NCBI GenBank assembly: GCA_964447285.1
Contig: CAYURO010000018.1
Span: forward strand, 20,522-84,521
Reading direction: 5' to 3'
DNA: 64,000 nt
Origin: an uncultured Enterobacteriaceae bacterium
GTDB lineage: Bacteria > Myxococcota_A > UBA9042
Part shown: positions 6,408 through 55,010 of the stretch, in pieces
How the letters are laid out: each line of letters opens with the position of its first letter
Position numbering within the stretch: the stretch's first letter is position 1
Translations under genes and position numbers: made by a program
The notes under the pieces: model-generated
Database searches by the model: none
Seen by the model: the letters and a program-made list of their open reading frames with translations, nothing else
What the model was told of the DNA's origin: nothing

Positions 6408-6428
6408 TCCGGCTGGCAATTCAACCGA

Positions 6429-18995: not shown

Positions 18996-19040
18996 GCGCA
19001 GCGGGCCTCGCGTCGCGAGGCCTTCTGGAGACTCCTTGCC

Positions 19041-25461: not shown

Positions 25462-25566
25462 CCTGCATCCGACGGTGCCCAATCGTACTCCTACCCCCCC
25501 ATGCCGTTTGGGTCTAAGCTTCGGCATTCCACTGCGACCGTTGGGCCGCCCACCTTGGGGGACGTC

Positions 25567-31663: not shown

Positions 31664-34600
31664 TCAGTAGATGCCCTTGGCGTTCGCACCGCCGAAGCCG
31701 TATGCGTCTACGGCCTCGCGCAGGTAGAACGGCACTTCGGTATACTGTCCCAGCTTCATGCACGCCTTGTTGTGCACGCACTTGCACCCGCTGTTGTCCG
31801 TGGCAGAGCAGCCCGCGATGGGGCCACCGTTCACGTTCTCCATCGAGGGGTCGTACTTCACCAGGGCCTCGCCGGTCTTGTCGCTGTAGACGGGCTCGTA
31901 CCAGTCGGGAATGCCGTCACCGTCCTGGTCGGGGCCGGGCGTCGTCTGGTAAGCGTCTTTCAGCAGCGAGTTGGCGTATTCGAGCACGCGCGCGGCGATG
32001 CCCTTCTCGACCGTGCGGCCGAAGATGGTCTCGCGGCCGATGCGCCGGGCGACGTAGATCTTGCCGATCGGGTTATGGAACTCGATGCGCGCCTTGATGC
32101 CCGGGTCGGAGTCCTTGCCGAGCTCCCAGATGCGCATCATGTCCATCCAGCCCTGCTGCGCGTTCTCTGGCAGGTACAGCATCGTCCAGGCGATCAGGAA
32201 CTTCTGCTGCTCCCAGCCCACCTGCGGGTCGACCACGGCCGTCTTGACGGGGGCCACGGCACCAAAGGGCTTGTCGTCGGTCGAGCCATAGGTCGTGCAG
32301 ACGGTGCTGTTCTGCGCCGGGAAGCAACTGGTGGGCTGCATGCCGAACCACGTCGTCCAGCCAAAGCCCATCGTCGGGAACTTCTGGGTGTCGATCAGCG
32401 GCTTGCCGTTGGCGCCGGCGGCAAGGCGCGGGCCCTTCAGGAAGTCGTCGCCGGTCAGTTGGTTGGCAAGCAGGCGGCGGAAGCCGTCCGGGAAGAGGTC
32501 TGCCAGCGAGGCTGAGCGGTAGCGAGCGTCGACGAAGTCGCCGAGGGACGAGCTGATGAAGTTGTCGACCGATTCGGTCATCAGCATCGAGATGTACATC
32601 TTGTCGTAGTACGAACCCGCATTCAGCGTGTACTGCGAGTCGTACTCGCCCTTGTCGCTGGCCAGTTGGTTCTCGACCGGGCGACCGCCGTAGGTGACCT
32701 GACCGAAGTAGCCCGTTGCGCCATTCGGAACGACTACCGTGACGGTCGCCGGCGAGCTGCTCATCTTCGATTCCATCGACCTCAGCACGCCATTCGCGGC
32801 GTCGGCGAAGTGCTCGCCTGCCTCTGGACGCGCCAACTGCTTGGCGAAGTGGTCAAACACGATACCCGAGGCCAGCACGTTGTCGGGGAAGAACGACTTG
32901 GCGGCATAGGCCCACAGCTCGTCCGGATCCGCGCCCACTTCAAGCGCGACGTCCCGGTAGATATTGCGGTACAGGGCCAAGCCCTTGGCGCCGTCGCGCA
33001 GCTTCTCGTTGAAGCGGGTCAGCGCGCGGTTCGCGGCGCCGCGGACCGAGAAGCTCTTTCGGCCGCGACGGTAGTTGTCGAAGATGTGGCCTACTTCCTG
33101 CTGGGTGATCATGAACCCGAAGATCTCGTAGGGATCCGCACCGTTATCGTGGCGGTACACGCTCAGGTTGCCCAGGTCGGCCCAGTTGTCGGTCGCGAAG
33201 CCATAGGGCACACGCTGGCGCTTCTGGGGGTCCACAGCAACGCCACCGCGGTAACCGCCCGTCGGCAGTTCGTTCGTCGCCGGCGCGCGCAGGCTGGTCC
33301 AGGGCACGTAATCGACCTTCTGCTGGCGGCAGCGGGTGTATCTCTCGTCAATCTTGACGATCAGGCCGTCGAGCAGGGGCGAGAAGGAACCGTCGGTCGC
33401 CTCGTTCCAGCGCGCCGGCTTGAACTTCAGGGGGTCGACCTCTTGGCAGTCCTTGATCAACTCGAAGCCCGTGTTCAGCGCCGAGTAATGGATGTCTTTG
33501 GACCCAAGGCTGAAAGTCAGGCCGAGGATGCCACCGAAGTTGTCGGTCTTGCCCAGCATGGCCTTGCCGCGTGGTGTGCCGGCCTTGTAGGTGTCGTCGG
33601 CGTACACGGCCACCGAGTCGCCGTACAGCATGCGCGTCGCGGCAAAGTCGTACACGCCAAGACCCAGGAAGTCCTGAGTGGTCTCGCCGGCATAGTCCAT
33701 GATCGACGACTGCTGCCACATCCAGATCAGGTTGTCGCGCTCCTCCTTGGTCACCGGGTCGAAGTAGCGCGGGCCGACGCACGTCGAGCCGTCGGGAGCC
33801 AGCGCCTTGCAGTCGGTCTTGACCTTGCCGTTCTTGGTGCGGAGCTGCCAGTACTGCGGGCGGAAGCCGGTCGCGTCGGAGGAGCTGATGAAGTTGTGGC
33901 GCAGACCGATGCTGTGTCCCATTTCGTGCGCGATGACCGCGTAGTGGGCGCGGCGAGCGACGTAGTCGCGCATCTTCTCTGCGCGCGCCTGCTGAACTTC
34001 CGGCGGCTGGGTCGGGTCGAACTGGCCAAACTTCTCCTGCAGCACGTCTGCAAGGCCGGCGATGCTCAGCGGTGCCTCAGCCATCTGCATGATGCACATG
34101 CCCCGCTCGGCCAGGGCGGTCTCCTTCATGCGGCGCAACTCGCGCTGAACCGCCGGGTTGCCGCCACGCAGCGGCGAGGCGATGTCCAACACGGCCTGGC
34201 CCAGCGGCATCCCCACCATGCCGGCAAGCACCTGGACGGCGGGCGTGATCAGCGAGGCCTCGAACAGCGTTCCCATCGCCATCTGGCGGCGGGCGGCGTA
34301 GGTGGGCGCCATGGCCGAAGCGACCTTTGCGGAGGCGGTCACTTCCTTCAACTGATGCTTCAGGTCCACGGCGGCCTGAACCGCTTCGGGGTGCTGCTGC
34401 TCGAAGGCGGCGGCACGCTCGGCGTTCATGTCGATGCCTTCAGACTGGGCGGTGCGCGCGTTGAATTCTTCAGCCGTCAGGCGGGGAAGCAGGCCGTTGG
34501 CAGAGGCGGCACGGGCGGCCTCGGACCAGTCTTTGATGTACTTGCCCTCGGTGATGCTCTCGGCCTTCAGCTCGCCAGCGATATAGCGAGCCTGGTCGAC

Positions 34601-36559: not shown

Positions 36560-36596
36560 CGAGGACCTCCCGGACGGGCGAGACGAAATGGCGGGG

Positions 36597-37637
36597 CTAG
36601 AAGAGCTCCGCGGGGGCGATCTGCAAATTGAGGTACAGATTCGTGAAACGATTGAAGAAAACCGATTGGTAGGTCGAATCTGGCGCGAGCTGGCTGTTGA
36701 CCGTCTGGGCGCCCAGCGACACATTCACCACATCCGTGATGTCCCACGACGCCTCGACCACGTAGACCATGGTCACGCGCTGCGACGGGTCGTTGGGGTC
36801 CGGCTCGACGGTGTAGGTCGTGCCTTTTGCGGTGCCGAGGGCGTAGAGCTGGTCGGCGTGCACTCCCGCGGTGCCGGTAACGGCCACGGACGATACGGGC
36901 GTCCACGTCGCGTTGGCCAAGCCGGTCCAGCGCCACTCGGGGTTGCGCAGGCCGGTGTGCGAGAACTGTGAGCAGCCGCTGGTCAAGTCGGCGCAACCCA
37001 CGACCCACGGCGAGTCGAGCTGGCCGGTCGTGTACTCGTGCGCCATGTAGGTGCCGCGGCCGGTCAACGACAGCTGCAGGCCCTGGCCGGCGAAGCGTGA
37101 GCTCCATGCGGCCGTGACGCCCAGCGACGGGGCAATGATGAGCGAGCGGGCTGCCGACGCCTTGCTGGTGGGCAGGTTCACGCCCAGGTCCGAGGACACC
37201 GACAGGCCGGTGGGGGTCACGGCGTCAGGCAACAAGATCGCATAGCGGGCGCCCAGTTGCGTGTCACCGACCATGGTCTCACCTTGGTAGGTGGTCCAGT
37301 CGCTCTGGGTCAACTCGCGCGAGAGGCTGCTGGATGCGTTGAAGCGCACGCGGCGGCTCAGGGTGTAGCGGACGGTGGCGCTCAGCGACATCTCGACGTT
37401 CGGATTCCAGGTCGGGTCCGCAGCCTTGTCCAGTCCGATCGCGAGGACGTCGGTTCGCAGGCTGACGTCGGAGCCGCGGAAGTTGGCCGCGATGCCGGGA
37501 TCGTCAACGGGCACCGCCACCGCCGTCACTGCATCCTCCGCCGCCGCCGAGGCGGGCCGAGCAAGCATTCCGATGAGGAGGAGCAGGAGGGGCAAGCTCA
37601 GGCAGGGAGAGCAGAGCGGACGAAGAGACCGTGGCAT
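36597..37637 (-). CDS. Outer-membrane beta-barrel protein, likely co-transcribed with the downstream zincin gene
   Basis: Signal peptide LLLLLIGMLARPASAAA. Alternating amphipathic strands. C-terminal ...IAPAELF with terminal Phe is a classic OMP signature. 37 bp upstream of the zincin start. Confidence 0.6.
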   Translation of the reverse strand: MPRSLRPLCSPCLSLPLLLLLIGMLARPASAAAEDAVTAVAVPVDDPGIAANFRGSDVSLRTDVLAIGLDKAADPTWNPNVEMSLSATVRYTLSRRVRFNASSSLSRELTQSDWTTYQGETMVGDTQLGARYAILLPDAVTPTGLSVSSDLGVNLPTSKASAARSLIIAPSLGVTAAWSSRFAGQGLQLSLTGRGTYMAHEYTTGQLDSPWVVGCADLTSGCSQFSHTGLRNPEWRWTGLANATWTPVSSVAVTGTAGVHADQLYALGTAKGTTYTVEPDPNDPSQRVTMVYVVEASWDITDVVNVSLGAQTVNSQLAPDSTYQSVFFNRFTNLYLNLQIAPAELF

Positions 37638-41834: not shown

Positions 41835-42800
41835 ATGACCGACCTGTTCGCCGAAGTCGTCCACACCAGCCGCGGGTACTTGCGCGATTCGCTGGGTCAC
41901 GCAGGCCACGCGCTGGGACTGTGGCGGGAGCTGTTGGAGCCGATCGGGCTTGCTCAACTCGCCGAACGCATGAGTATTTCTCCGCAGCGGTTGCGTCCCG
42001 TGCTGGAGGCGATGCGCCTGCAGGGGTGGGCGGAGACAGACGAGCGCGAGGCTTGGCACCTGGCCGGAACTACACCTGATGATACGGAAGTGCTGAAGCT
42101 AGGTTGGGGTAGGTTATGTGATGTGTTGCATGATGATCGACCTCTTGACCCGTTCATCGGTCTCGACGTCCGCGACGCCAAGCTGGCTTGGCACGCCCAT
42201 CAGGCGCGCGTGCACGCGGACCCGGCAGCCGAGCTTGCCAATGCGCTGAAGTCTATGCATCCGTTGCGGATTCTGGACGCAGGGGGCGGCTCTGGGGTGT
42301 GGTCGTGCGCGCTGCTGCGGGTCTGCCCAGAGGCTCGCGTGACGATCATCGACGACGCGGAGACACTGAAGGTCGCGGCGGCGCACCTGGACCAGGCGGA
42401 CAAGGCGGGTGCGCCCGGACTGCGCGAGAGGACGACCTTGCACGCGGCGGACCTGCGTCACGACGTGGGGTTGCGCGACTTCGACCTCGTCGTGCTGGCC
42501 CACGTGCTGCACCTGCTGGGGCCGGCAGAGGCGGCGGCTGTGGTGCAGACGTGCGCGCAGACCCTGCGCCCGGGCGGGCTGCTGGTCCTGATCGACTTGG
42601 CACTGGACGCCGACCGACGCGGACCTGAGACAGCGCTGTGGTTCGCGGTCGACATGGCGCTTTACACCCCAGCGGGTCGCGTGTACGAAGTTGGTGAACT
42701 TGAACAGTTCCTTAATGATAGTGACATAAAAGTGATCCAACACATTAGATTGACGTCGGCCCCCGAGACCTGCGTCCTGCTGGCACGGCGACCTGGGTGA
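41835..42800 (+). CDS. Class-I SAM-dependent O-methyltransferase with an N-terminal winged-helix/dimerisation domain (small-molecule OMT type)
   Basis: SAM motif I ILDAGGGSGVWSCALL. Acidic motif II IIDDAE. Motif III LVVLAHVLH. Layout is that of plant and Streptomyces O-methyltransferases. Confidence 0.75.
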   Translation: MTDLFAEVVHTSRGYLRDSLGHAGHALGLWRELLEPIGLAQLAERMSISPQRLRPVLEAMRLQGWAETDEREAWHLAGTTPDDTEVLKLGWGRLCDVLHDDRPLDPFIGLDVRDAKLAWHAHQARVHADPAAELANALKSMHPLRILDAGGGSGVWSCALLRVCPEARVTIIDDAETLKVAAAHLDQADKAGAPGLRERTTLHAADLRHDVGLRDFDLVVLAHVLHLLGPAEAAAVVQTCAQTLRPGGLLVLIDLALDADRRGPETALWFAVDMALYTPAGRVYEVGELEQFLNDSDIKVIQHIRLTSAPETCVLLARRPG

Positions 42801-43601
42801 TCAGCGCATGGGGCGCAGCGCGGTCGTGCCATCGGCTGGCGCGGGCTCGAAGCGCAGATCCAGCGACGCGCGCACTAGGTCTCGCGACATGTTCGACCAC
42901 GCGCAGTGCACCGTCCGCGCCTCGAACAACACCACGTCGCCTGCCCGCACCGCTTGGGTGGCCCAGCGCAGGTTCGGGTCGCTCAGGTCCAGATCGATCC
43001 CGGTCCATGCATCCACGTGCGGCCAGTCGCGGCGGTGGGATCCGGGAACAATCCCCAAGGGTCCCAATGGGATCGACGTGTCGACGACCGGCACCCACGC
43101 GGTCCACAGCCCAGGCGTTTGCGGCAGGTAGAACGCGTCCTGGTGCGGCCGGGTGGTCTGCGACGGACTGCCGGGAAGCTTCAGCCAGCAGTAGCTCGCC
43201 GTCGCCAACCACATCGCTTGAATTGCCACGATGGCGATGACGTCAACGAGCGCCGGGTGTTGGGCCACCGCCAGAAACTCAGGCGCCGTACGCAAGAGTC
43301 GTTGCAGGTCGACGAAGCGCGGGTCGTCCCAGCCGCGACCCTCCAGCCGTGCGCCGGGGACAGCGCGCAGCACCTCCGCGTCGGCAGTCCGTTGCAACAA
43401 GCCGCAGTTGCAGGCGAAGTCGTGCACCACCTGGCGCAGGGCCGTCAGCGTCGCGAGGTCGATCAAACCGGGAAGGTAGAGATAGCCGTCGTCATGCGCC
43501 AACTCGCGAAGGGCTTGCGGATCATGCAGTTGTGTACGTGCATCGCGGAACGGCTGGGTCCGAAAGGTATGGGGCTCCAGCGGCTGGCTCAGGTCGACCA
43601 A
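42801..43601 (-). CDS. Phytanoyl-CoA dioxygenase (PhyH) family Fe(II)/2-oxoglutarate-dependent oxygenase
   Basis: HxD motif HQDAFY. Distal His IVPGSHRRDW. 2-oxoglutarate-binding region GDVVLFEARTVHCAWSN. Confidence 0.8.
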   Translation of the reverse strand: MVDLSQPLEPHTFRTQPFRDARTQLHDPQALRELAHDDGYLYLPGLIDLATLTALRQVVHDFACNCGLLQRTADAEVLRAVPGARLEGRGWDDPRFVDLQRLLRTAPEFLAVAQHPALVDVIAIVAIQAMWLATASYCWLKLPGSPSQTTRPHQDAFYLPQTPGLWTAWVPVVDTSIPLGPLGIVPGSHRRDWPHVDAWTGIDLDLSDPNLRWATQAVRAGDVVLFEARTVHCAWSNMSRDLVRASLDLRFEPAPADGTTALRPMR

Positions 43602-43608
43602 TGTCCCC

Positions 43609-44373
43609 TCACGTGCGTGCGACCATCAGGCGGTCGGCAAGCTCGAGCCAGCCGCCAGCACCGGACTCGACGGTGATCCAAGCGGGAGGCTGGTCGATGA
43701 CGGACAGCTGGGCTGTGACGTCGGCCGTCCCCACCGCCAGACCGAACCGACCTGTCTGCCACAGCCCCACGTCGTTGGGCGAGTCGCCGATCGTTGCGAT
43801 CTCGTGCGGAGCAACGCCGCGACGTCGCGCAAGTTCAAGCACTGCAAGGCCTTTGTCCGGATCATGGTCCGACAAGTGCAGGTGGACCGACGACCACACC
43901 AGCCACACCCCGAGCCGTCGGGCCACCGCGCGCAACCCGTCCAGCTCCGTGTCGGTCCGCCCCTCTCGCAGCCACGCCACGTCGCCGACGCGGCAGAAAC
44001 GGTCGGGCGACAGCGTCCACGGGCGCCCCAAGTGCCCGAGTTCCTTGGCCGCTTCGTACAGCCGATCGAGGTCGGGCGGGGGGGTCAAGGCCTCGACGGG
44101 AAGGTCGGGGGTGACCAGCGTGGCGCCGTTCTCTGCGATGGCCTCTCGGATGCCGGGCAAGTATCGGGCCAGCCCCAACGTCTCGCCGGCGGGACGACCG
44201 GTGACCGGCAGCACTTCGACACCCGCTCGGCTGAGCCGACGGAACTCGATCAGGACGTCCGGGGGGATGCGGCCGCCGTGGGTCAGGGTGCCGTCGATGT
44301 CGGTGGCGAGCAGACGGATGCCCGCAAGCGTCGCCGACGGGACGGTCGATAAGGGAGCAGGGGCCTTGCGCAT
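43609..44373 (-). CDS. HAD-superfamily hydrolase (Cof/HAD-IIB-like)
   Basis: Motif I LLATDIDGTLT. Motif IV GDSPND. Start set at the internal Met (the ORF extends to 44466). The stop lies 7 bp before the PhyH start, so the two are probably co-transcribed. Confidence 0.7.
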   Translation of the reverse strand: MRKAPAPLSTVPSATLAGIRLLATDIDGTLTHGGRIPPDVLIEFRRLSRAGVEVLPVTGRPAGETLGLARYLPGIREAIAENGATLVTPDLPVEALTPPPDLDRLYEAAKELGHLGRPWTLSPDRFCRVGDVAWLREGRTDTELDGLRAVARRLGVWLVWSSVHLHLSDHDPDKGLAVLELARRRGVAPHEIATIGDSPNDVGLWQTGRFGLAVGTADVTAQLSVIDQPPAWITVESGAGGWLELADRLMVART

Positions 44374-44735
44374 CGCATCTCCGACCGGGGGGAGGGCGGG
44401 TCGGAGCTTGGCACACGCCGGCCGGGTGGCCAAGCGAAACGGCGTGTGCGGGTGCGCCAACCCCACGGCAAGGATGCGACCGCAGCCGTAGACGCCCGCG
44501 GCTCCGCTTCCTACAATCTCGCGCTTCGGCGACGGCCCGGGTCAGCATGTCTCGTGGAGTCTCGCCGCGCACTCGGTCGCTGAGGACGAGCCGAGCACCG
44601 CGCTGCGGGCAGCGGCAGCGAACGAAGGTGGCCGCACCCACAGCCGGCGGGATGGCGATTTTCTGGCCACGTGCAGCGATTCGCGTTTGACTGTCATCCC
44701 CAAGAACGCTCCTCAGTGGAGCAGCGAGAACCGTC

Positions 44736-45692
44736 ATGAACCACGACCGCTCTGCCACCCCCGTGCTCGTCGCGATGGGCGGCAATTCGCTCCTTGACCC
44801 GGCCAAGCCGCCGACCGTCGACAACCAGTTCGCCGTGACGGCCGCCGCCATCGTCCCCGTGGCCGACTTGATCCAGCGCGGCGTCCACGTTGTCCTGACC
44901 CACGGCAACGGCCCGCAGGTCGGCTTCATGCTCCTGCGCTCGGACGCCGCGCGTCAGGTGGTGCACCAGGTGCCGCTCGACTCGCTGGTTGCCGACTCGC
45001 AGGGCGCCATCGGCTACATGATCCAGCGACTGCTGCGCGACGAACTGACGAAGCGGGGCATCGACCACACGCCGATCAGCATCGTGACGCAGGTCGAGGT
45101 CGACCCGAACGACAAGGCGTTCCAGAAGCCCACCAAGCCGATCGGCAAGTTCTACTCGGCCGAAGAGGCAGAGGATTTCAAGCGCAACGCCGGTTGGGAC
45201 ATGGTCGAGGACTCGCGTCGCGGCTACCGTCGGGTGGTCAGCTCGCCCTCGCCTGTCAGCATCCTCGAGCTCGGCGCCATCAAGATGCTGGTCGAGAACG
45301 GTGCCACCGTGATCGCGTGTGGCGGCGGCGGCATCCCGGTCAAGCGCACGCCCGACGGCTGGCGCGGGGTCGAGGCCGTCATCGACAAGGACCGGGCCAG
45401 CGCGCTGCTGGCGGCGGCGTTGGGCGTCAAGCGTTTCTTCATCACCACGGGAGTCGATGCGGTCTACGTCGACTACCAGACCGATCACCGTCGCGCGCTG
45501 CATCAAGTCACGATTGCAGAGTTGCGGCGGCTGGAAGCCGAGGGCCAGTTCCCCCCTGGCAGCATGGGCCCCAAGGTAGAGGCGGCCATGGACTTTCTCG
45601 AGAACGGCGGCGAGGAAGTGATCATCTGCACCCCCGAGGCGCTTGCCGACGCCTACGACGGTCGCGCGGGCACCCGCGTCACGAAGGATTGA
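44736..45692 (+). CDS. Carbamate kinase
   Basis: LVAMGGNSL, VLTHGNGPQVG and CGGGGIPV are carbamate-kinase (ArcC/YqeA-type) hallmarks. 318 aa. Confidence 0.85.
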   Translation: MNHDRSATPVLVAMGGNSLLDPAKPPTVDNQFAVTAAAIVPVADLIQRGVHVVLTHGNGPQVGFMLLRSDAARQVVHQVPLDSLVADSQGAIGYMIQRLLRDELTKRGIDHTPISIVTQVEVDPNDKAFQKPTKPIGKFYSAEEAEDFKRNAGWDMVEDSRRGYRRVVSSPSPVSILELGAIKMLVENGATVIACGGGGIPVKRTPDGWRGVEAVIDKDRASALLAAALGVKRFFITTGVDAVYVDYQTDHRRALHQVTIAELRRLEAEGQFPPGSMGPKVEAAMDFLENGGEEVIICTPEALADAYDGRAGTRVTKD

Positions 45693-45697
45693 ACACC

Positions 45698-46837
45698 ATG
45701 ACGAACCCCCTCCACGGCCTGGATGCGCAGGCTTTGAACGCACTTTACGGCCGCAGCCTGTCCATCACCCAGGACTGGACCACCGGCGAGATCGAGCAGC
45801 TGCTTGGCGTCGCCGCCCGCTTCCACGAGCTGGACCGCTCGGGCAAGCAGATGGATCTGCTGCCGAACGAGCTGGCCTACGCGATGTTCTTCGACAACTC
45901 GACCCGCACCAAGTCGGCGTGGGCCGGTGCCGCCACGCGTCTGGGCATGATGCCCGTCATCGTTGACGGCTCGTCCACCCAGGTCGCTCACGGCGAGACC
46001 GCGGAAGAGACCGGCGCCATGCTCGGCATGAACGCGCACGCACTGGGCGTTCGCCATGACTTGATCCTCGGCGAAGGCAACCTGTTCATGCGCGACGTGC
46101 TGAAGGGCATCACCGACTATCTTGTGGCGACCAAGAATCCGCGCAAGGTGCCGCTGGTCAACCTGCAGTGCGACATCGACCACCCGACCCAGGTGCTGGC
46201 CGACCTGCTGTGGCTGCGCGAGAACTTCGGCAACGACGGCCTGAAGGGCAAGAAGGTCGCGGTGTCGTGGGCCTATTCGCCCAGCTATGCCAAGCCGCTG
46301 TCGGTGCCGCAGGGCCTGATCATGCTGCTGACCCGCTATGGCGCGGACATCACGCTGGCGCACCCCGAGGGCTACGACCTGCTGCCCGACACGATTGCCG
46401 CGGCGAAGAAGAACGCCCAGGAGTCCGGCGGTCAGTTCAACGTCACGCACTCGATGGATCAGGCCTTCGAGGGCGCGATCGCGGTGTACCCGAAGAGCTG
46501 GGGCCCGCAGGCGCTGATGTTTGAGCGCGTGGCCGCCAACAAGCGCCGCGACACCAAGGCGATGGGCGACATCGAGCAGCGCGCGCTGGCGATGAATGCG
46601 ACCCACAAGGACTGGATCTGCGACGAGCATCGCATGGCCAAGACCGCCGGTGGCAAGGCCCTGTATCTGCACTGCCTGCCTGCCGACATCGGCGCCGAGG
46701 TCTCGCCCGGCATCATGGACCTGCACCGCGTGAACGTGGCCAAGGAAGCCCAGTGGAAGGTCTATGTGATCATGGCGATGCTGGCCATCGGCAAGGTCCC
46801 GGATCTGGCCAACCGTCTGGCTGCCCTGGGCCGCTAG
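45698..46837 (+). CDS. YgeW-like (knotted) carbamoyltransferase, catabolic transcarbamylase type
   Basis: Carbamoyl-phosphate-binding STRTK motif (FFDNSTRTKSAW). HCLP motif (LYLHCLPAD). About 379 aa with extended C-terminus, as in YgeW / oxamate carbamoyltransferase rather than ArgF. Confidence 0.75.
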   Translation: MTNPLHGLDAQALNALYGRSLSITQDWTTGEIEQLLGVAARFHELDRSGKQMDLLPNELAYAMFFDNSTRTKSAWAGAATRLGMMPVIVDGSSTQVAHGETAEETGAMLGMNAHALGVRHDLILGEGNLFMRDVLKGITDYLVATKNPRKVPLVNLQCDIDHPTQVLADLLWLRENFGNDGLKGKKVAVSWAYSPSYAKPLSVPQGLIMLLTRYGADITLAHPEGYDLLPDTIAAAKKNAQESGGQFNVTHSMDQAFEGAIAVYPKSWGPQALMFERVAANKRRDTKAMGDIEQRALAMNATHKDWICDEHRMAKTAGGKALYLHCLPADIGAEVSPGIMDLHRVNVAKEAQWKVYVIMAMLAIGKVPDLANRLAALGR

Positions 46838-46955
46838 TTCGTTCTTTCGGGGCTGCCGCCCGCGCCGGGCAAGATCTGGGCGCGGGCGGCAGTCCCTTGT
46901 TTCCGTGAGCGTTTCTTCATTCCGCCCGCCCCCCCGTGGCCGGCAGAGGTTCATC

Positions 46956-48509
46956 ATGGTCGACAACACCAAGGCTTCCACGCTGGACGCCCGCATCGCC
47001 GAACTCGCCGAGAAGTACCGGCCGCTTGCCGCTGAGATCCTGGCAGAAGTCGTCCGCATTCCGGCCGACTACGTCGATCGCTCGGTCGAGGAGGGGGGCG
47101 ACCCGACCTGTGGCGAGTCGAACCACGAAGGCCCGCGTTTTGAGTACTTGCGCAAGAAGATCATTGAGATCGGTGCGGTCCGTCGCCCAGAAGACGCGGG
47201 CTTCGACGCCTTCGGCAATGTCGTGTGGCACGTCGAGGACGAGTCGGACGGCATCCCCCGCGCGCAGAAGAAGGTCATCTACATGGATGGCCACGGCGAC
47301 ACCGTGCGCCCCCTGCGCTCGCAGTGGCACGCCCGCATGAACGGCGCGCTCGACCCGTTCGACGGTATGGTCGACGCGGCCAAGCTTGACCCCAAGGCGC
47401 TTGCCAGCTCGCTGGGCTACCTGCCGCCCCAGAACGAGTGGAACCACCTGCTGTTCGGTCGTGGTTCCGCGGACCAGCTCGGTGGCGTCGTGGCTGAGGT
47501 GGTTGCGACCAAGATCCTGCTCGAGCTGGCCCCTGAGGGCGCCCTGCGTGGTGCCATCGTGCGTGCCTATGCCACCGCGGCCGAAGAGGACAACGACGGC
47601 GGCGGCCCGCTGTACGTCGTTGACAAGGTCCTGCGCGGCGCTCCCTCCGAACTGGTCCCCGACGTGGTGATCCTGACCGAGGGCACGGGCGACGCCAACA
47701 AGGGCGCGCTGGGCATCTACCGCGGTCAGCGCGGCCGCATGCAGATCGAGGTCACGGTCGCCGGCCGTTCCTGCCATGGCTCGATGCCGTGGGAGGGCTT
47801 GAATCCGTTGGAGTTCGGCGGCGCCATCGTCAGCGAGGCCGCCCGTCGCTACAACGCGCGCGAAGGCTTCCTGGACCACGCGTTTTTGGGCCACGGCACC
47901 CGCACGGCCAGCTGGGCAACGTTGGACTCCCCCAGCGACTGCGCCGTGCCGGACAAGTTCGTGTTCCGCTTCGACCGCCGCCTGACGGTGGGCGAGACGC
48001 CGGAGCAGGCGGTCAAGGACGTCGAGGCGCTGGACGGCGTGCGCGTGGCCCGCGAGGCCGGCCTGAAGGTCGACGTCTCGGTGCCGCGCTACAACAACCT
48101 GACCTGGCGCAAGTATCGCCCCGACAACCCGCAGATCTACATGGGTTGGCTGACGCCTGAGGAGCACCCGGCCATCCAGACCGCCGTCGACGCGTACCAC
48201 CGCGTGATCACGCCGCACATCCCCGTGCGTGAAGAGAAGGGGGGCATGCTGCGCAAGGAGCCGCGCGTCGACCGCTGGATCTTCTCCACCGACGGTGTGG
48301 GCTTCCCCGTGCTGGTCGAGGACAAGACCATCCAGACTGAGGGCAAGCAGTGGGTCACGTCTGGCCCCGTCAAGCACCCCGCCATGTTCGGCATCGGGCC
48401 CGGCATCGAGCAGAACACGCACAAGATCGGCGAGTGCTCGGACTTGCGCGAGCTGCAACACGCGATCGCCTTCCTGGCGCGATTCCCCAGCCTGTACGCC
48501 CAGAAGTAG
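46956..48509 (+). CDS. M20-family metallohydrolase (YgeY/DapE/ArgE-like)
   Basis: Metal ligands in MDGHGDTV. GRGSADQLGG (Asp bridge). EEDNDGGG / EG catalytic Glu region. C-terminal His. 517 aa. Confidence 0.75.
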   Translation: MVDNTKASTLDARIAELAEKYRPLAAEILAEVVRIPADYVDRSVEEGGDPTCGESNHEGPRFEYLRKKIIEIGAVRRPEDAGFDAFGNVVWHVEDESDGIPRAQKKVIYMDGHGDTVRPLRSQWHARMNGALDPFDGMVDAAKLDPKALASSLGYLPPQNEWNHLLFGRGSADQLGGVVAEVVATKILLELAPEGALRGAIVRAYATAAEEDNDGGGPLYVVDKVLRGAPSELVPDVVILTEGTGDANKGALGIYRGQRGRMQIEVTVAGRSCHGSMPWEGLNPLEFGGAIVSEAARRYNAREGFLDHAFLGHGTRTASWATLDSPSDCAVPDKFVFRFDRRLTVGETPEQAVKDVEALDGVRVAREAGLKVDVSVPRYNNLTWRKYRPDNPQIYMGWLTPEEHPAIQTAVDAYHRVITPHIPVREEKGGMLRKEPRVDRWIFSTDGVGFPVLVEDKTIQTEGKQWVTSGPVKHPAMFGIGPGIEQNTHKIGECSDLRELQHAIAFLARFPSLYAQK

Positions 48510-48824
48510 TCTCTCCGGCTACCGACGCAGCGCCGCCGACCGCGTGAGCCGACCATGACTCACGCGGCCTGCGGTGTGCCTCGCCTGCACTGGTCTTCTC
48601 CGATTCGGCCTTTCATCGGCCGATCGACTGACCGTCGCCAAGCCGCGGAAACACGCGCGGGTCACGGCATCCAAACCGCCGGCAGGACTGTCGCAAAGCC
48701 TTCTGGTTCGCTATACTTCGCGCCCACTTCCGCGCCCACGTGCGGAGCTTGAGTCGTCGCAACGCACCTACGCGGCCACGGCGACTGGACACCCTCAACT
48801 CTTGTGTTTCATCGAGGCTCTGCC

Positions 48825-50885
48825 ATGAGGACGACCGCAACCCGCTTCTCCGTTCCCTGCGCGCTCGCGCTTGCCTGTCTTTGGTTTGCGGTTCCGGCCG
48901 CAGCCCTCGTGCCCACCACGGTTGGGGTAGAGGGGCTACTGCTGTCGTCCGGTGGTGGTCCGGCGGCAGATGGCGACTATGCGGTGACCTTCGCCATCTA
49001 CAAGGACGTCAGCGGCGGAGCCGCCGTGTGGTCGGAAGGCCCAGTGACGCTGACCGTGAAGAGCGGGCAGTTCGTCCACGCGTTGGGCAGCAAGACGGCG
49101 CTGACCCAGCAGGTCCTTGCCACCGCCGGCGCTCAGTCGTTCTTGGGGGTGCGGGTGGGCATCGACCCCGAGTTCGCTCGCAAGCCGCTGAATTCAGTGA
49201 CCACAGCGCTGCGGGCGGCTGTGGCTGAGAACATCGACTGCTCCGGCTGCATTGGCTTGGGGCAGCTGGATGCCACCGCATTGGTCGATTACGCCAAGGT
49301 TGCCGACCTCTCCAAGGTGGCGACCACGGGCAAGTTCTCTGACCTGCAGGGGGGGCCGGACCTGTCCGCGTACGTCAAGATGGTTTCGCTTGCGACCGTC
49401 GCGCTGTCGGGGGCGTATGCCGACCTGTCCGGCATCCCCGACCTGTCGGTCTATGCGAAGTCCGCAGCCCTGCACAAGGTCGCTACGACGGGCAAGTATG
49501 CAGATCTGGTGGATGCGCCGGTGCTGGCGGCGGTGGCGAAGTCGGGCTCGTACAAGGACCTGATCGACCAGCCGACGCTGCCCAAGCTGGGCGACAAGTG
49601 CGGCACCGGCCTTGTGATGCGCGGCATTCTGGCGAACGGCGCCTACGACTGCGTGGTTGCGCTCGACCCGGCGGCTCTGCCCGGCGACGGCCTGAACGAG
49701 ATCTCCAATGGCCTGATCACCAATGAGTTCGCAGACTCAGCCAGCGGCGGCACGGGTGTGAAGATCCCCGACAACAGCCCGGTCGGTGTGTCCGACATCA
49801 TCGACTTTCCCGACGTGGGCTTGGCCAAGAAGCTGACGATCAACATCGACATCACCAATTCCAAGATCAACACCGTGACCGTGTACCTCTACGACCCGGC
49901 GAATCAGGAGTACGTCCTGCACCAGAAGTCGAGTTCAGGCACCAGTCTGAAGACCGGTTACCCAACCCCGACCAGCACGGCGTCGGGCGACCTGAGCACT
50001 TGGCTTGGCAAGAATCCCAAGGGCAAGTGGTTCCTGAAGGTTGTGGACAACGACTTCCTCAACAACACGACAGACGGTCAGATCAACGCCTGGTCGATTT
50101 CGATCGAGACGCTGTCCAGCAAGAAGGTTCAGGTCAAGGGCGACCTGCTGGTGGACGGTGGCATCAAGGTCGGCGCCGACGCGACGGCGTGCACGGCCGC
50201 GAAGGCTGGCACGCAGCGATACGCCAACGACCGGATCGAGTACTGCAACGGATTGGTTTGGCTACCGGTCGGCGCTTCCGGGGCGACGTACCGCTGGGCC
50301 GTTTGGTCCAGCTACGACCAGAGTTGCTGCTGGTTCGGCGCTGGCGGTAACGGCAACGCGGCGCTGTTCGGCGGCGTGACTCCGCAGGCTTGGGGTGATG
50401 GCAGCGGTTTTGCGGGTCAGATGAGTGCCGACAAGGAAGTGCTGCGGACCCTGTTTACGAACAAGGGCTACGCCCAGAAGAACGCGACGGTGTGGGCCGA
50501 GTCCTGGTACACCTACAGCTCAACCAACTCCAAGCACGCGGGAGCGTTGTTCCGCATCCGCAATACCACGGGCTCCGCCATCACTTGGACGCCCTACGCG
50601 TACATGACGTCCTACGCGGGCTGGGGCAACTACGCGAGCGTGGCTCTAAACGGTACCAGCATTTGGAACAGCGGCGGCAACAACTACTACTCGAATTCGA
50701 CCTTCAGTTGGAACCTGTCGATCCCAGCGAACCGCGTCAGCACGGCGATCTTCATCTCAGCCAACACGGCACCGTCCGGCACGGCGACCACGTTCCTCGC
50801 GTTCTACAACAACAGCTTGGCGCTTCCGGCCGGTTTGGTGTTCGTGGACGATATGGACTTCGCGACAGGTGGCTGGGAGCAGTAG
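48825..50885 (+). CDS. Secreted paralog of the 25567..27726 protein: same N-terminal domain, ~24-aa repeats and P-like domain, but a different C-terminal domain (Trp/Tyr/Asn/Ser-rich, lectin-like)
   Basis: Signal peptide ALALACLWFAVPAAA. About 45-50% identity to the paralog over the first ~420 aa (VPTTV..GGGPAADG..; GKNPKGKWFLKVVDNDFLNNTTDGQINAWSISI). C-terminal domain has no Myxo Cys repeats or FReD. Confidence 0.7.
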   Translation: MRTTATRFSVPCALALACLWFAVPAAALVPTTVGVEGLLLSSGGGPAADGDYAVTFAIYKDVSGGAAVWSEGPVTLTVKSGQFVHALGSKTALTQQVLATAGAQSFLGVRVGIDPEFARKPLNSVTTALRAAVAENIDCSGCIGLGQLDATALVDYAKVADLSKVATTGKFSDLQGGPDLSAYVKMVSLATVALSGAYADLSGIPDLSVYAKSAALHKVATTGKYADLVDAPVLAAVAKSGSYKDLIDQPTLPKLGDKCGTGLVMRGILANGAYDCVVALDPAALPGDGLNEISNGLITNEFADSASGGTGVKIPDNSPVGVSDIIDFPDVGLAKKLTINIDITNSKINTVTVYLYDPANQEYVLHQKSSSGTSLKTGYPTPTSTASGDLSTWLGKNPKGKWFLKVVDNDFLNNTTDGQINAWSISIETLSSKKVQVKGDLLVDGGIKVGADATACTAAKAGTQRYANDRIEYCNGLVWLPVGASGATYRWAVWSSYDQSCCWFGAGGNGNAALFGGVTPQAWGDGSGFAGQMSADKEVLRTLFTNKGYAQKNATVWAESWYTYSSTNSKHAGALFRIRNTTGSAITWTPYAYMTSYAGWGNYASVALNGTSIWNSGGNNYYSNSTFSWNLSIPANRVSTAIFISANTAPSGTATTFLAFYNNSLALPAGLVFVDDMDFATGGWEQ

Positions 50886-50937: not shown

Positions 50938-52101
50938 ATGACCGAACGCCATCACATCTACCTGATCCCCGGCTTCTTCGGGTTCACCAATCTGGGTGAC
51001 CTTCGCTATTTCGCCCACGTGAACGACGTGCTGCGGGACGAGTTCGCGCGCCGCGACTTGGACGTGGTCGTGCACCCGGTGCGGACGTGGCCCACGGCTT
51101 CCGTCCGCCGCCGGGCGCAGCGGTTGCTACAGGTCATCGCGGAGACAAGCGGGGATACGGACGAGCCGGTGCACCTGATCGGCCATTCGTCGGGAGGTCT
51201 GGACGCGCGGTTGCTGGTCTCTGCTGGCGCGTCGCTGTCCGAAGACCCGTCGGCGGAGCGCATTGCCGCCCGGGTTCGCTCTATCGTCACAGTGGCCGCA
51301 CCGCATTTCGGCACGCCGCTGGTGTCGGTATTCACCCGCCGGTTGGGTGGCCGGCTGCTGCAAGTGCTTTCGCTGTCTACGATTTACGTCCTGCGTTATG
51401 GCCGCCTGCCGCTGTCGGTCGCGGTGCGGCTGGGCGGCCTTCTGGTCAAGCTGGAAGACCGGATGGGCACCGGACAGGACGTGCTTGACCAACTGTACGG
51501 CGAGCTGCTGGACGACTTCTCGGACGAGCGCCGCGTGGCCTTGGACGAATTCCTGACCGATGTGGGCAGCGACCAGCAGCTGATTCCGCAGCTGACGCCT
51601 GAAAACATGGCGACTTTCAACGCGACGACGCGCGACGACGGTGGGGTTCGCTACGGCTGCGTGCTGGCCCGCGGACGGCCGCCGGGGCTCGCCTCGACGT
51701 TGGCCGCGGGCCTTGGGGTGTACGCGCAGGCCAGTCACGCCTTGTACGCAACGATCTATCGAGGGGCGTCACGCACGCCGCATGACCGCACGGTGATGCC
51801 GTCCTACGAGCAAGTTCAGGCGATGCGGGCGGCTTGGGGCGAGGTTCCGGACCCGCGCGACAACGACGGCATCGTGCCCACGCTGTCGCAGCTGTGGGGC
51901 GAGGTGATCTGCGCCGTCACGGCGGACCATCACGACCTGATCGGCCACTTCGACGATACCGAGCACGACCCGCCGCACTACGACTGGATCACCAGTGGCT
52001 CGGGGTTCAAGCGGCGGGAGTTCGAGGCGTTGTGGGCTTCGGTGGCGCACTGGATTGCAGTTCGAGGCATTCCGTCGGCGGGAAAGGGCGCGCCCAGATA
52101 G
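50938..52101 (+). CDS. Alpha/beta-hydrolase, putative secreted-type lipase/esterase
   Basis: Nucleophile elbow HLIGHSSGG (GHSxG). HIYLIPGFFGF oxyanion region. Downstream Asp and His (DNDGIV; DHHDLIGHF). Confidence 0.6.
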   Translation: MTERHHIYLIPGFFGFTNLGDLRYFAHVNDVLRDEFARRDLDVVVHPVRTWPTASVRRRAQRLLQVIAETSGDTDEPVHLIGHSSGGLDARLLVSAGASLSEDPSAERIAARVRSIVTVAAPHFGTPLVSVFTRRLGGRLLQVLSLSTIYVLRYGRLPLSVAVRLGGLLVKLEDRMGTGQDVLDQLYGELLDDFSDERRVALDEFLTDVGSDQQLIPQLTPENMATFNATTRDDGGVRYGCVLARGRPPGLASTLAAGLGVYAQASHALYATIYRGASRTPHDRTVMPSYEQVQAMRAAWGEVPDPRDNDGIVPTLSQLWGEVICAVTADHHDLIGHFDDTEHDPPHYDWITSGSGFKRREFEALWASVAHWIAVRGIPSAGKGAPR

Positions 52102-52277
52102 CTGCTTCATCGACCCGGCGCACGCTGTTCTCCAGCGATGGCGACAGGTTGGGCGTCGAGTTGTTGCAGGCCGACTGCTCAGGACTCAGGCGCGCTGGTT
52201 GCGATGCGCAGGCATCTCCGATACCTTCATATTCACTATTCAGGCGTTTCGAAGGCGGGTCGTGCGCCGTGGAGCGG

Positions 52278-55010
52278 ATGCGGATGAAGCGTGGTCCCCT
52301 CGTCGCAATTCTGGCCGTCTCATTGGTGTTCGCAGGCTGCCGTGCCGAATTCCTGCCCGCTTCGGCCGCACCTGGCGAGGACGTCGATTCGCTGGACGCT
52401 GCAGACACTGCCGTCCCCGACGGGGCGGTAGAAACGACGCCCGACATTGTGGCGGACCTCGCGGTGGATACCTCTGCCGACGACGTGGCGGACGTTGGTG
52501 TTGATCAGGACACAGCCGCAGAGACCCTTGCCGACGCGGAGTTGGACGTTGCCGTCGACGCTGTCACCGACGCGGCTGTGGACGACGCGACGCCCGACGA
52601 TGTTGTCGTCAACGTCGACGTCGATGCCTCGGAGGTGCTGGATACGGTCGAGCCCTGCACCAACCAGACCTGCGACGACGGCCAGCCATGCACAGCGGAC
52701 AGTTGCAAGGACGGCGTGTGCTCGCATCTGGCCCTCGCGGGGGCCTTCTGCAACGACGGCGACGCCTGCACGGTCGGGGACAAGTGCGTGCAGGGCCTGT
52801 GCAAGGCGACCGGGCCGGCCAACTGCGACGACGGCCAACCGTGCACCATCGACACGTGCGACAAGGTCGCCGGCTGCCAGAAGAAGGCAGCGGTCGACGG
52901 CATCGCGTGCGAAGACGGCAGTGCGTGCACGGCTGGCGACGCCTGCGCGATCGGCAAGTGTGTGGCGGGCAAGCCGGTGGCGTGCGACGACGGCAACGTG
53001 TGCACCGACGACGGCTGCGACGCGGTGCAAGGGTGCGTCCATCCAGCGGTTTCGGCAGACATGGGCTGCGACGACGGCGACGCTTGTACCGAAGGCGATG
53101 TTTGCGGGGGAGCCACCTGCAAGGCTGGCAAGCCGCTGATCTGCGACGACGGCAAGCCTTGCACGACCGACAAATGCGTGGCAGCGACGGGATGCGCGAA
53201 TGCCAACACGGAGATCGAGACCGTGTGCAACGACGGCAACGACTGCACGGTCGGCGACATGTGCGACGGACAGGGTAAGTGCGGCGGCCTGGGCAAAGAC
53301 TGCAACGACGATAACCCTTGCACCATAGATACTTGCGCCAATAGCGTCTGCGCCCACGGCCCGTCCGCCGTCGGCGACCCCTGCAGCGACGACAACCCCT
53401 GCACCTTGGGCGACGCCTGCAAGGACTCAGCATGCGTGGCGGGGACCCCCAAGGTTTGCGACGACAAGAACGCGTGCACGGCAGACGCGTGCGTGGCCGG
53501 GACGTGCAAGTACCAGCCGAAGGCCAGCGGTGCCTGCGACGACGGCGACGGCTGCACGGTCGACGATGCCTGCGACGCGGGCGTATGCGTGGGCGGCGCC
53601 GCCAAGACCTGCGACGACAACAACACCTGCACCAAGAACACTTGCGCTGAGGGCAGTTGCAGCTTCCCCGCGCTGAGCGGACTCAGCTGCGACGACGGCG
53701 ACGGCTGCACGCTGGGCGACACCTGCCAGGTGGGTCAGTGCAAGGCCGGCACCGCCAAGGACTGCGGCGATAGCCATCCGTGCACCGACGACAGTTGCGC
53801 CGGTGGCGTCTGCGCCAACCTGGCGAACGCGGCCCCGTGCAACGACGGAGAGGCCTGTACGGTGTCGGACCAGTGCAGCAACAAGTCGTGCCAGGCCAAG
53901 AAGTTGGCCACCGTCACCCATGCCCAGGTGAAGGCCTGCGGTTACGTCGGGGCCGTCTCTTTCCGCCAGCGCGGGATGACGGTGGTTCCCGGTGGCTACG
54001 CCGTCGCGGGCGACGCGAGCTGTGGCGGTTCCAGCGGCAACGACAGCACGGGCTCGATGCTTCTGCGCCTGGGTCCCGACGGCGTCGCGCTGGGTCCCGC
54101 GACGTCGTTCTACCCGTCCACGTCGAATCTGGTGCTGGGCGTGGTCTGGGACGGCAAGTCGATTCTGGTTCCGTTGTACCAGGACCAGACCGGACTGCGG
54201 CGCCTCGTGGTGGTCCGTTTTGGACTCGATGGCGTCCTGAAGGGCGAGCTGCTGCTGCCGACCGCGGGCGTCGTCTATCCGGCCGACGCCAGGGCAATTG
54301 CGGGCGGCGTCGCGGTGCTGATCGGCGGCAAGGTGCCGTCCAGCGACTCTGTCACCGACACGTCGACCACCCTGTTCGTCGTCGCCAACGACACTTTGGT
54401 CGCGGCCTTGCCGACGTCGTCCGGTGCGGCGCAGTACTCGGGCCTGGTGCTGCCCGTCTCGGGGGCCTACATCGTGTTGTACGGCGCGGGAACCATGGCG
54501 CGTCACGCTGTTTCTGCAGACGGCAGCAAGATCGTGTCCACCGTGACTACGTCGTCGCCGCAGCCGAATTCGTTCCCGGGTGCTCCCGTCACTGCGCTGG
54601 GCCTGACAGGGGACCCGAACATCGCCGTCGTCGCCGGCTACCAGCCGCCCGGCGGACCGTCGGTGGGACCTGCTTGGGCGTCACTGTTCTACACCTCGAA
54701 TCTGCAGTACATCGCCCGGGTTCCGCTGGTCGACGCGGGCGGCAAGACGGCGGTCGTTGCGCCAATGGCGATCGTGCCGCTGACGACGACAGAGTTTCTG
54801 GTGGCCGGCATCAAGACGAACAGCGGGACGACGTACGCGGTCCGCATGAACACGGCGGGTCAGGTGTTGTCGACCATCGACACGCTGCCGCAAGAGGCCA
54901 CGACCTGGCTGTACGACGCGGCCTCGGGCGTGTTGACGCTGGGACTGGTGCATCAGAACACGCAGCTGTCCTTTGCCAAGACCCAACCGGTGCCGGCGGT
55001 CTGCAAATAG
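52278..55010 (+). CDS. Large lipoprotein with about 20 tandem Cys-rich modules (C-DDG-x-CT-x-D-x-C) and a C-terminal beta-rich, propeller-like region
   Basis: Lipobox VFAGC. Acidic linker. Regular 36-40-aa Cys modules from about residue 100 to 560. C-terminal 350 aa are Gly/Val/Ala-rich with repeated strand-like segments. Confidence 0.65.
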   Translation: MRMKRGPLVAILAVSLVFAGCRAEFLPASAAPGEDVDSLDAADTAVPDGAVETTPDIVADLAVDTSADDVADVGVDQDTAAETLADAELDVAVDAVTDAAVDDATPDDVVVNVDVDASEVLDTVEPCTNQTCDDGQPCTADSCKDGVCSHLALAGAFCNDGDACTVGDKCVQGLCKATGPANCDDGQPCTIDTCDKVAGCQKKAAVDGIACEDGSACTAGDACAIGKCVAGKPVACDDGNVCTDDGCDAVQGCVHPAVSADMGCDDGDACTEGDVCGGATCKAGKPLICDDGKPCTTDKCVAATGCANANTEIETVCNDGNDCTVGDMCDGQGKCGGLGKDCNDDNPCTIDTCANSVCAHGPSAVGDPCSDDNPCTLGDACKDSACVAGTPKVCDDKNACTADACVAGTCKYQPKASGACDDGDGCTVDDACDAGVCVGGAAKTCDDNNTCTKNTCAEGSCSFPALSGLSCDDGDGCTLGDTCQVGQCKAGTAKDCGDSHPCTDDSCAGGVCANLANAAPCNDGEACTVSDQCSNKSCQAKKLATVTHAQVKACGYVGAVSFRQRGMTVVPGGYAVAGDASCGGSSGNDSTGSMLLRLGPDGVALGPATSFYPSTSNLVLGVVWDGKSILVPLYQDQTGLRRLVVVRFGLDGVLKGELLLPTAGVVYPADARAIAGGVAVLIGGKVPSSDSVTDTSTTLFVVANDTLVAALPTSSGAAQYSGLVLPVSGAYIVLYGAGTMARHAVSADGSKIVSTVTTSSPQPNSFPGAPVTALGLTGDPNIAVVAGYQPPGGPSVGPAWASLFYTSNLQYIARVPLVDAGGKTAVVAPMAIVPLTTTEFLVAGIKTNSGTTYAVRMNTAGQVLSTIDTLPQEATTWLYDAASGVLTLGLVHQNTQLSFAKTQPVPAVCK
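52578..53960 (+). repeat. Protein-level tandem array of Cys-rich modules (about 114-nt period at the DNA level, degenerate)
   Basis: Repeated gcgacgacggc...tgcac units. Encodes CxDGxxCTxDxCxxGxC iterated. Confidence 0.7.

Follow-up and report, generated by a model that had tools for sequence, protein, structure and literature searches.

What does a set of three neighbouring genes, encoding a carbamate kinase (CK), a YgeW-like carbamoyltransferase and an M20 metallohydrolase, accomplish in an environmental bacterium of the Myxococcota? The set lies in a 64,000-nucleotide (64-kb) stretch of contig CAYURO010000018.1 (assembly GCA_964447285.1), hereafter the window (Table 1). Proteins of the same three families are encoded in the ygeW-ygeX-ygeY-hyuA-yqeA locus of E. 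coli and act in the reductive uric acid, or 2,8-dioxopurine, pathway reconstituted by two 2025 studies (Life Metab PMC12507026; bioRxiv 10.1101/2025.04.24.650524). In this pathway, XdhD/DOPDH, YgfK, SsnA and HyuA convert urate to 2,3-diureidopropionate; YgeW uses phosphate to cleave one ureido group, giving carbamoyl phosphate, from which the carbamate kinase YqeA makes ATP; and YgeY removes the remaining ureido group by hydrolysis, leaving 2,3-diaminopropionate, which YgeX converts to pyruvate (PMC12507026; 10.1101/2025.04.24.650524). The two studies disagree on which ureido group is removed by YgeW and which by YgeY. We propose that the operon in the window probably represents the terminal, ureide-cleaving and ATP-yielding module of a variant reductive uric acid (2,8-dioxopurine-type) pathway, in a diverged form.

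Third-position G+C, Pfam, NCBIfam and public gene calls agree on three consecutive plus-strand genes, and independent gene calls on identical public contigs give products of the same three lengths. The window has a G+C content of 64–71%, and raw lists of open reading frames (ORFs) are therefore crowded with shadow frames; third-position G+C in the frames of CK and M20 is 0.87–0.88, a high value typical of real genes in the window. The M20 ORF start at 46905 probably lies 17 codons ahead of the real one, and the end at 48509 is the true stop. Only 5 nt separate the CK stop from the start of the YgeW-like gene, which is preceded by AAGGA, a ribosome-binding site as read from the sequence. The spacer between the YgeW-like and M20 genes is 118 nt, and relatives have spacers of 50–170 nt at this junction. 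The triad is one compact same-strand operon, and its adjacency is not a matter of chance: all 27 related loci from other genomes have an M20 gene no more than 10 kb from the YgeW-like gene, in nearly all of them directly beside it.

Table 1. Features of the window, with positions counted from its first nucleotide
Feature	Position	Strand	Remarks
Secreted proprotein-convertase P-domain protein	25462–27726		paralogue of 48804–50885; one of the two also with DUF4215
1686-aa protein	31664–36724		weak Met-zincin (DUF4953) match
S-adenosylmethionine (SAM)-dependent O-methyltransferase (+), PhyH-family Fe/2-oxoglutarate dioxygenase (−), Cof-type HAD hydrolase (−)	41835–44466	+, −, −	directly upstream of the triad, divergently oriented
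Candidate sigma-70-like promoter, TAGACG-17-TACAAT	44489–44517	+	consensus scan; about 220 nt before the CK start
CK	44736–45692	+	318 aa; first gene of the operon
YgeW-like, predicted knotted carbamoyltransferase	45698–46837	+	379 aa
Perfect 18-bp G+C-rich hairpin, then UUGUUUCC	46849–46896	+	within the YgeW–M20 spacer
Long-form YgeY-like M20 metallohydrolase, predicted ureidohydrolase	46956–48509	+	517 aa
Secreted proprotein-convertase P-domain protein	48804–50885		paralogue of 25462–27726
Dicty_CTDC-repeat protein	51834–55010		1058 aa

The first gene encodes a protein with an AA_kinase Pfam domain that passes the curated equivalog cut-off of the arcC model TIGR00746 (365.2 bits; cut-off 358.25), residues 10–317 aligning with model positions 3–309 of 309, that is, over its full length. 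This kinase is 54–68% identical to those of other loci with the order CK–YgeW–M20 and about 42% identical to enterobacterial YqeA. The Acidimicrobiia loci L012, L013, L019, L022, L026 and L031 have instead the order YgeW–M20–CK, and their kinases are only about 40% identical to that of the window. This difference between about 40% in loci with a terminal kinase and 54–68% in CK-first loci suggests that a kinase was recruited to the YgeW–M20 pair separately, more than once.

The second gene product belongs to the Pfam families OTCace_N and OTCace. Its NCBIfam scores are highest for YgeW (NF005538, 385.3 bits), followed by N-acetylornithine carbamoyltransferase (162), ornithine transcarbamylase (OTC, 117), putrescine transcarbamylase (PTC, 96) and aspartate transcarbamylase (ATC, 87). 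Among solved structures, E. coli YgeW (3Q98, 354 bits) and its E. faecalis homologue (2YFK, 320 bits) come closest, with N-acetylornithine transcarbamylase (AOTCase) following at about 108 bits. The motifs STRT (residues 68–71), HPTQ (162–165) and HCLP (325–328) are present, and the proline-rich segment WAYSPSYAKPLSVPQG differs from that of E. coli by one residue; a trefoil-knotted C-terminal domain threaded through such a loop is predicted.

The third gene product combines the Pfam families M20_dimer and Peptidase_M20, a two-domain arrangement of catalytic and dimerisation domains. It scores 188.3 bits against the YgeY model NF009555, in an alignment restricted to residues 162–516, compared with 66 for DapE and 26 for ArgE. 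The binuclear metal-ligand motifs (H-x-D, D, EE, E, H) align with those of YgeY, as DGHGDTV, GRGSADQ, AEEDNDG, TEGT and NTHKIGE. An AlphaFold model (predicted local distance difference test score, pLDDT, 80.8; predicted template modelling score, pTM, 0.87) compared with solved folds by Foldseek shows a generic two-domain M20 fold, with DapE, ArgE and carnosinase the best matches at no more than 18% identity. No solved homologue was found by phmmer at 1e-5, and a profile search gave only remote DapE matches of at most 32 bits.

Taken together, the three family assignments and positions made in a preliminary description of this DNA, written from the sequence alone, agree with Pfam, NCBIfam and the public gene calls. 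That description had also named the arrangement that would reduce the operon to simple arginine metabolism, namely a transcarbamylase clustering with anabolic ArgF/ArgI and an M20 protein clustering with ArgE. In such a scheme, an acetyl- or succinylornithine transcarbamylase (AOTCase or SOTCase) or a catabolic OTC would act with an ArgE-type deacylase and the kinase of a deiminase-like route. Although AOTCase and SOTCase come nearest among the knotted relatives that have been characterised, and the M20 superfamily also includes ArgE and DapE, the transcarbamylase prefers YgeW over AOTCase and OTC (385 versus 162 and 117 bits) and the M20 protein prefers YgeY over ArgE (188 versus 26 bits). 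The transferase also has the YgeW-type residue Q95 where AOTCase and SOTCase have a substrate-binding Trp. A scan of the ORFs on either side of the triad and of the other large ORFs in the window brought up no arcA, arcD or other arc or arg gene, and the relatives sit with XDH, SsnA and YgfK genes, as described below. A role in arginine metabolism is effectively refuted.

To which YgeW-like proteins is the window protein related? Scanning one genome per species gave two sharply separated groups. Members of the first are 63–99% identical to the window protein and come from metagenome-assembled genomes (MAGs) labelled Myxococcota, Acidimicrobiia, Gemmatimonadota, Thermoanaerobaculia, Acidobacteria and Eisenbacteria; the second (43–49% identical) holds the canonical YgeW proteins of Enterobacteria, Vibrionaceae, Aeromonas, Verrucomicrobiota, Clostridia and Bacteroidales. 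The median identity of YgeW-like proteins is 67% inside the environmental clade and 44% between clades. In the neighbour-joining (NJ) tree, the environmental clade forms a monophyletic unit, to which a small Phycisphaerae/Sumerlaeota cluster is sister; here and below, trees were built from distances, with neither outgroups nor support values. The M20 proteins of the clade are 503–528 aa long and 59–69% identical to the window M20, while YgeY proteins are about 400 aa and 28–33% identical. On these identities, the M20 partner has diverged together with the YgeW-like protein, and the two form a distinct environmental clade. Metagenomes hold thousands of homologues at 70–78% identity, in which the transferase is usually auto-named YgeW and the M20 protein usually bears a generic name ("M20 family metallo-hydrolase").

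Some of the records carrying clade genes have questionable labels. Four MAG records of the 'binchicken' or third-party annotation (TPA) type (L009, L011, L017 and L029) bear the names Rickettsiales, Bifidobacterium or Enterobacteriaceae in their titles; of these, L011 and L017 fall in the tree with Actinomycetota/Acidimicrobiia loci, and L009 and L029 lie close to the Myxococcota sequence of the window. Their taxonomic labels look unreliable. In L020, a Myxococcales locus assembled from Oxford Nanopore (ONT) reads, a tblastn match of 66% identity was found, yet no conserved family has an intact ORF; this loss is probably due to frameshift errors in the assembly.

Turning to the active site of the transferase, the residues expected to bind substrates were taken from the list for E. 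coli YgeW in a 2015 review of transcarbamylases (PMC4581275). In E. coli numbering, the carbamoyl-phosphate site comprises the SxRT, HPxQ and HxLP motifs together with R122, Q98 and K364 (PMC4581275). All 11 corresponding residues are kept in the window protein (S68, T69, R70, T71, R119, H162, Q165, C326, L327, Q95 and K354) and are invariant across 26 clade sequences, that of the window included. The residues proposed to bind the second substrate in E. coli YgeW are Q160, K270, D124, S200, K203, D334 and E344 (PMC4581275). Each of these seven has its identical counterpart in the window protein (Q157, K266, D121, S196, K199, D330 and E334, respectively), and in the 26 clade sequences they are essentially invariant, the exception being one S-to-T change.

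Gene neighbourhoods were compared by clustering all ORFs of 86 loci and the window segment, with 10 kb on each side, and annotating representatives; the resulting co-occurrence counts are not phylogenetically independent. The canonical loci give the known order of a ygeV-type regulator, ygeW, ygeX, ygeY, hyuA and yqeA, which validates the approach. Within 10 kb of the YgeW gene, an M20 gene is found in 39 of 51 canonical loci, and a carbamate kinase in 13 of the 27 environmental and 33 of the 51 canonical loci. A selenium (Se)-type xanthine dehydrogenase (XDH; TIGR03311, 902 bits, cut-off 830) accompanies 11 environmental and 20 canonical loci; an SsnA-like amidohydrolase, nine and 16; and a YgfK-N-like protein, which is homologous to the N-terminal 400 residues of YgfK and has a 4Fe-4S domain, six and 20. 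At least one of these purine-type genes (Se-type XDH, SsnA-like or YgfK-like) lies within 10 kb in 14 of the 27 environmental loci, many of which also encode pyridoxal phosphate (PLP) enzymes.

The closest non-identical relatives of the window, L087–L089, are available on Pfam-annotated contigs. L089 (76% identity) has the order PLP enzyme, XDH, amidohydrolase, CK, YgeW and M20, with an Fe-S protein on the opposite strand; L087 (76%) has PLP enzyme, CK, PLP enzyme, YgeW and M20; and L088 (72%) contains a bare YgeW–M20 pair. In the NJ tree, the window protein is nested among XDH-linked members, and XDH-linked and stand-alone loci are interleaved.

The final steps of the pathway appear to be differently equipped in the environmental loci, where PLP fold-II enzymes (CysK-like and ThrC-like) stand in place of YgeX. 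The same PLP, XDH and SsnA families also occur beside canonical-type YgeW in Verrucomicrobiota and Planctomycetota. YgeX and the PLP families are never found together (0 of 82 loci; 0, 32, 18 and 32 loci, Fisher p = 5e-5, uncorrected for phylogeny). Because the PLP fold-II families never co-occur with the diaminopropionate ammonia-lyase YgeX and usually lack HyuA, a non-orthologous replacement of the last pathway steps by PLP enzymes is suggested. Purine-type clusters outside Enterobacteria and Firmicutes encode one to three PLP fold-II enzymes, usually without HyuA. These enzymes take the form of a CysK-like protein of about 490 aa, a ThrC-like protein of about 410 aa, and a third family; their carriers include L014, L016, L018, L024, L025, L028, L029, L032, L087 and L089, and, in the canonical clade, L033, L062, L064, L076 and L083.

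Two further features of the environmental neighbourhoods deserve mention. The YgfK-N-like proteins (L025, 7818–9974; L089, 12970–15030, minus strand) are 690–720 aa long and match only positions 4–396 of the 1012 of TIGR03315, that is, the N-terminal 400 residues or so. They have a 4Fe-4S dicluster domain, but the NAD(P)H module (Pyr_redox_2) found in E. coli YgfK is missing, which implies that the environmental clusters use a different electron donor. In L006, a contig of 903 kb, the triad lies between a reductive-pyrimidine-like set at 1–9000 (a Fer4_20/Pyr_redox_2 protein, a class-III aminotransferase, a dihydropyrimidinase, a CN-hydrolase and an aldehyde dehydrogenase) and, at 17131–21149, genes for a YgfK-C-like flavoprotein and a xanthine-dehydrogenase-like protein.

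From family identity, E. coli biochemistry, active-site conservation, synteny, the close relatives, tree position, shared context and operon structure, we infer the function of the triad as a terminal purine ureide module, and with it the nature of the substrate, the reaction's direction and its connection with purine breakdown in this genome. A YgeW-like trimer, working in the catabolic direction, would convert 2,3-diureidopropionate and phosphate to carbamoyl phosphate and a mono-ureido-aminopropionate. CK would then transfer the phosphate of carbamoyl phosphate to ADP, giving ATP and carbamate, which would decay to ammonia and carbon dioxide; this step would pull the unfavourable phosphorolysis forward. 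The binuclear long-form M20 enzyme would remove the second ureido group to yield 2,3-diaminopropionate, and a PLP enzyme encoded elsewhere could convert this to pyruvate and ammonia.

Several elements of the preliminary description survive this comparison. The parallel with the E. coli ygeW locus holds, as does the logic of a catabolic transcarbamylase feeding a carbamate kinase. Oxamate transcarbamylation, which it had named as a possible reaction, is outdated: YgeW, for a long time an orphan enzyme, had at one point been put forward as the oxamate transcarbamylase (OXTCase), but in E. coli that enzyme is AllFGH, and YgeW showed no such activity and phosphorolyses 2,3-diureidopropionate. A different substrate, as it suggested, is not favoured by the retained second-substrate residues and by the position of the relatives' module beside XDH-, SsnA- and YgfK-type genes. 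Its view that the triad is unexpected in a presumed aerobe was overstated, because none of the three steps needs or excludes oxygen and the clade occurs widely among free-living Myxococcota, Acidimicrobiia, Gemmatimonadota and Acidobacteriota. The three triad reactions are oxygen-independent, and judged from its genes the organism is no strict anaerobe, since an O2-dependent dioxygenase adjoins the triad.

A number of observations weigh against the assignment to purine breakdown. Both diverged proteins fall below the curated equivalog cut-offs: the YgeW-like protein scores 385.3 bits against a cut-off of 453 (NF005538) and 362.4 against 500 (TIGR03316), and the M20 protein 188.3 against 321 (NF009555) and 158.4 against 321.5 (TIGR03526). 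Forty positions are fixed differently between the environmental and canonical YgeW clades, including STRTR to STRTK, R68F and D123H (beside D124), and of these STRTK and D123H are near the active site. The loop between the conserved D334 and E344 is shortened by a 6-residue deletion fixed in the clade (HCLPADISGVSCKEGEV to HCLPADIG-AEV). The M20 protein shares about 30% identity with YgeY, exceeds it in length by about 115 residues and carries six insertions of roughly 6–28 residues relative to YgeY proteins of 395–425 aa. HyuA, which makes 2,3-diureidopropionate in the known pathway, is found within 10 kb in one of 27 clade loci (32 of 51 canonical), and YgeX in none (also 32 of 51 canonical); the lone clade HyuA sits in an apparently unrelated cluster of pyrimidine type. 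About half of the clade loci are stand-alone. In the 64-kb window itself, XDH, SsnA-like, YgfK-N-like, the three PLP families, YgeX and dihydropyrimidinase/hydantoinase gave no tblastn match, and the immediate neighbours of the triad (HAD hydrolase, PhyH dioxygenase, methyltransferase and secreted proteins) are unrelated.

These observations could be accommodated if the same chemistry served another, non-purine ureide, in a self-contained salvage of imported albizziin (beta-ureidoalanine), an N-carbamoyl amino acid or a citrulline-like compound. The isolation of the triad here, which recurs at about half of the clade loci, the changes around the YgeW active site, the much modified M20 protein, the scarcity of HyuA and the reductive pyrimidine genes beside the triad of L006 all speak for such a role. 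We nevertheless regard it as rather unlikely: the proposed second-substrate residues are all kept, save for one S-to-T change in the clade; in the tree, stand-alone loci are mixed with XDH-linked ones and the two kinds form no separate subclades; no transporter or other gene is consistently linked to the stand-alone loci; and dispersed pathway genes occur in known degraders, such as C. sporogenes, the carbamate kinase of which is encoded elsewhere on the chromosome. A broader variant, which we consider unlikely, is that the whole clade, marked by the shortened active-site loop of YgeW, the long-form M20 protein and the accompanying PLP enzymes, differs in more than sequence and serves a differently wired ureide pathway in which the transcarbamylase acts on a compound other than 2,3-diureidopropionate, the stand-alone triads being autonomous ureide-to-ATP salvage systems in oxygen-tolerant, free-living bacteria. 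A different intermediate would follow from the near absence of HyuA and the absence of YgeX at clade loci, and the substrate might then be a ring-opened product received directly from the SsnA-like enzyme or an imported ureido amino acid. The assignment to the end of a reductive uric acid pathway remains the one we prefer.

The genes directly upstream of the triad raise another alternative, in which the operon is biosynthetic: CK would supply carbamoyl phosphate for the carbamoylation of a diamino acid, destined for a secondary metabolite tailored by the PhyH dioxygenase, the methyltransferase and the HAD phosphatase. Their immediate, divergently oriented position fits such a scheme, and transcarbamylases that carbamoylate 2,3-diaminopropionate (DAP) exist in zwittermicin and viomycin synthesis (PMC4581275). 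These DAP transcarbamylases, however, are unknotted and OTC-like, with other active-site residues (PMC4581275, Table 1), and the operon's own M20 enzyme, as a de-carbamoylase, would reverse the modification. The O-methyltransferase, PhyH and HAD neighbours recur only in near-identical contigs (L001, L002 and a JGI place) and are absent from the gene calls of L087–L089; no further neighbour family is conserved in the 27 clade loci; and no non-ribosomal peptide synthetase (NRPS), polyketide synthase (PKS) or other core biosynthetic gene is present among the 23 window ORFs scanned with Pfam. We consider a biosynthetic role very improbable, and the three upstream genes are probably unrelated to the triad.

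The remaining flanks encode a beta-propeller protein and several secreted proteins of the P-domain, Dicty_CTDC and serine-hydrolase-like types, with signalling and ABC-F genes farther out; these, too, are missing beside the module in the gene calls of L087–L089. The P-domain, Dicty_CTDC and Met-zincin proteins (Table 1) are a typical myxobacterial secretome. As for noncoding elements, the candidate promoter is a weak result of a consensus scan (1 site versus 0.3 expected) and lies in the divergent intergenic region shared with the HAD gene. The hairpin in the YgeW–M20 spacer is unique in the window and is not a repeated element; the 126 nt from 46835 to 46960 fold with −67.9 kcal/mol (z = −5.4 versus shuffles). 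It was not called in a terminator scan, the T-run being weak, and it matches no Rfam family; it may act as a partial terminator or serve to stabilise the mRNA. A riboswitch or RNA leader was also considered, and neither Rfam at gathering thresholds over the whole window nor a permissive scan of 44300–48900 gave anything meaningful.

The gene families and the logic of the pathway are already known, the pathway having been worked out only in 2025. The environmental clade itself appears to be undescribed in the searchable literature with respect to its long-form M20 protein, its cluster composition and its free-living hosts; the composition appears new in having PLP enzymes for YgeX, a near absence of HyuA and a short YgfK-like protein. 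A published survey applied identity cut-offs of at least 63% for YgeW and at least 53% for YgeY, and would therefore miss the clade. The data suggest that free-living Myxococcota, Acidimicrobiia, Gemmatimonadota and Acidobacteriota, together with related MAGs, commonly carry a co-diverged end module that yields ATP. If this is true, anaerobic-type purine breakdown reaches lakes and soils, natural enzyme variants become available for defining the specificity of YgeW and YgeY, and generic names such as that given to the M20 protein can be corrected. For this window, the finding is modest: a well-conserved catabolic operon, the pathway partners of which are not in view within 64 kb.

Among known systems, the arginine deiminase pathway (ArcB and ArcC) offers the same general chemistry, in which ureido phosphorolysis gives carbamoyl phosphate and then substrate-level ATP, and the window CK matches the arcC model; it differs in that the window transcarbamylase is of the YgeW type and predicted to be knotted (OTC 117 bits) and shares its operon with an M20 enzyme. 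AOTCase and SOTCase with ArgE share with the triad a proline-rich loop, the knotted fold class that is predicted for the window protein, and an M20 partner of the ArgE/DapE superfamily, and differ in score (162 bits; 108 for AOTCase in the PDB), in having Trp rather than Gln in the 80s loop and in their arginine gene context, the window operon having none and its role presumably being catabolic with a kinase partner. The closest counterpart is the YgeW–YqeA–YgeY set of E. coli and its C. sporogenes homologues, with the same three adjacent families, conserved M20 metal ligands, and transcarbamylase motifs and proposed substrate residues identical to those of E. coli YgeW; like known uric acid clusters, the relatives of the window are clustered with XDH/DOPDH-, SsnA- and YgfK-type genes. 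Compared with E. coli, the window has a YgeW-like protein of about 46% identity to its enterobacterial counterparts, with STRTK and the 6-residue deletion after HCLPADI, a longer M20 protein of about 30% identity to YgeY, and the order CK–YgeW–M20; its 64 kb are without ygeX, hyuA, ssnA, xdh and ygfK, and the clade has PLP fold-II enzymes instead of YgeX. Finally, whereas descriptions of the known pathway assign it to anaerobes associated with hosts, mostly Bacillota, the hosts of this clade belong to free-living environmental phyla and are not gut anaerobes.

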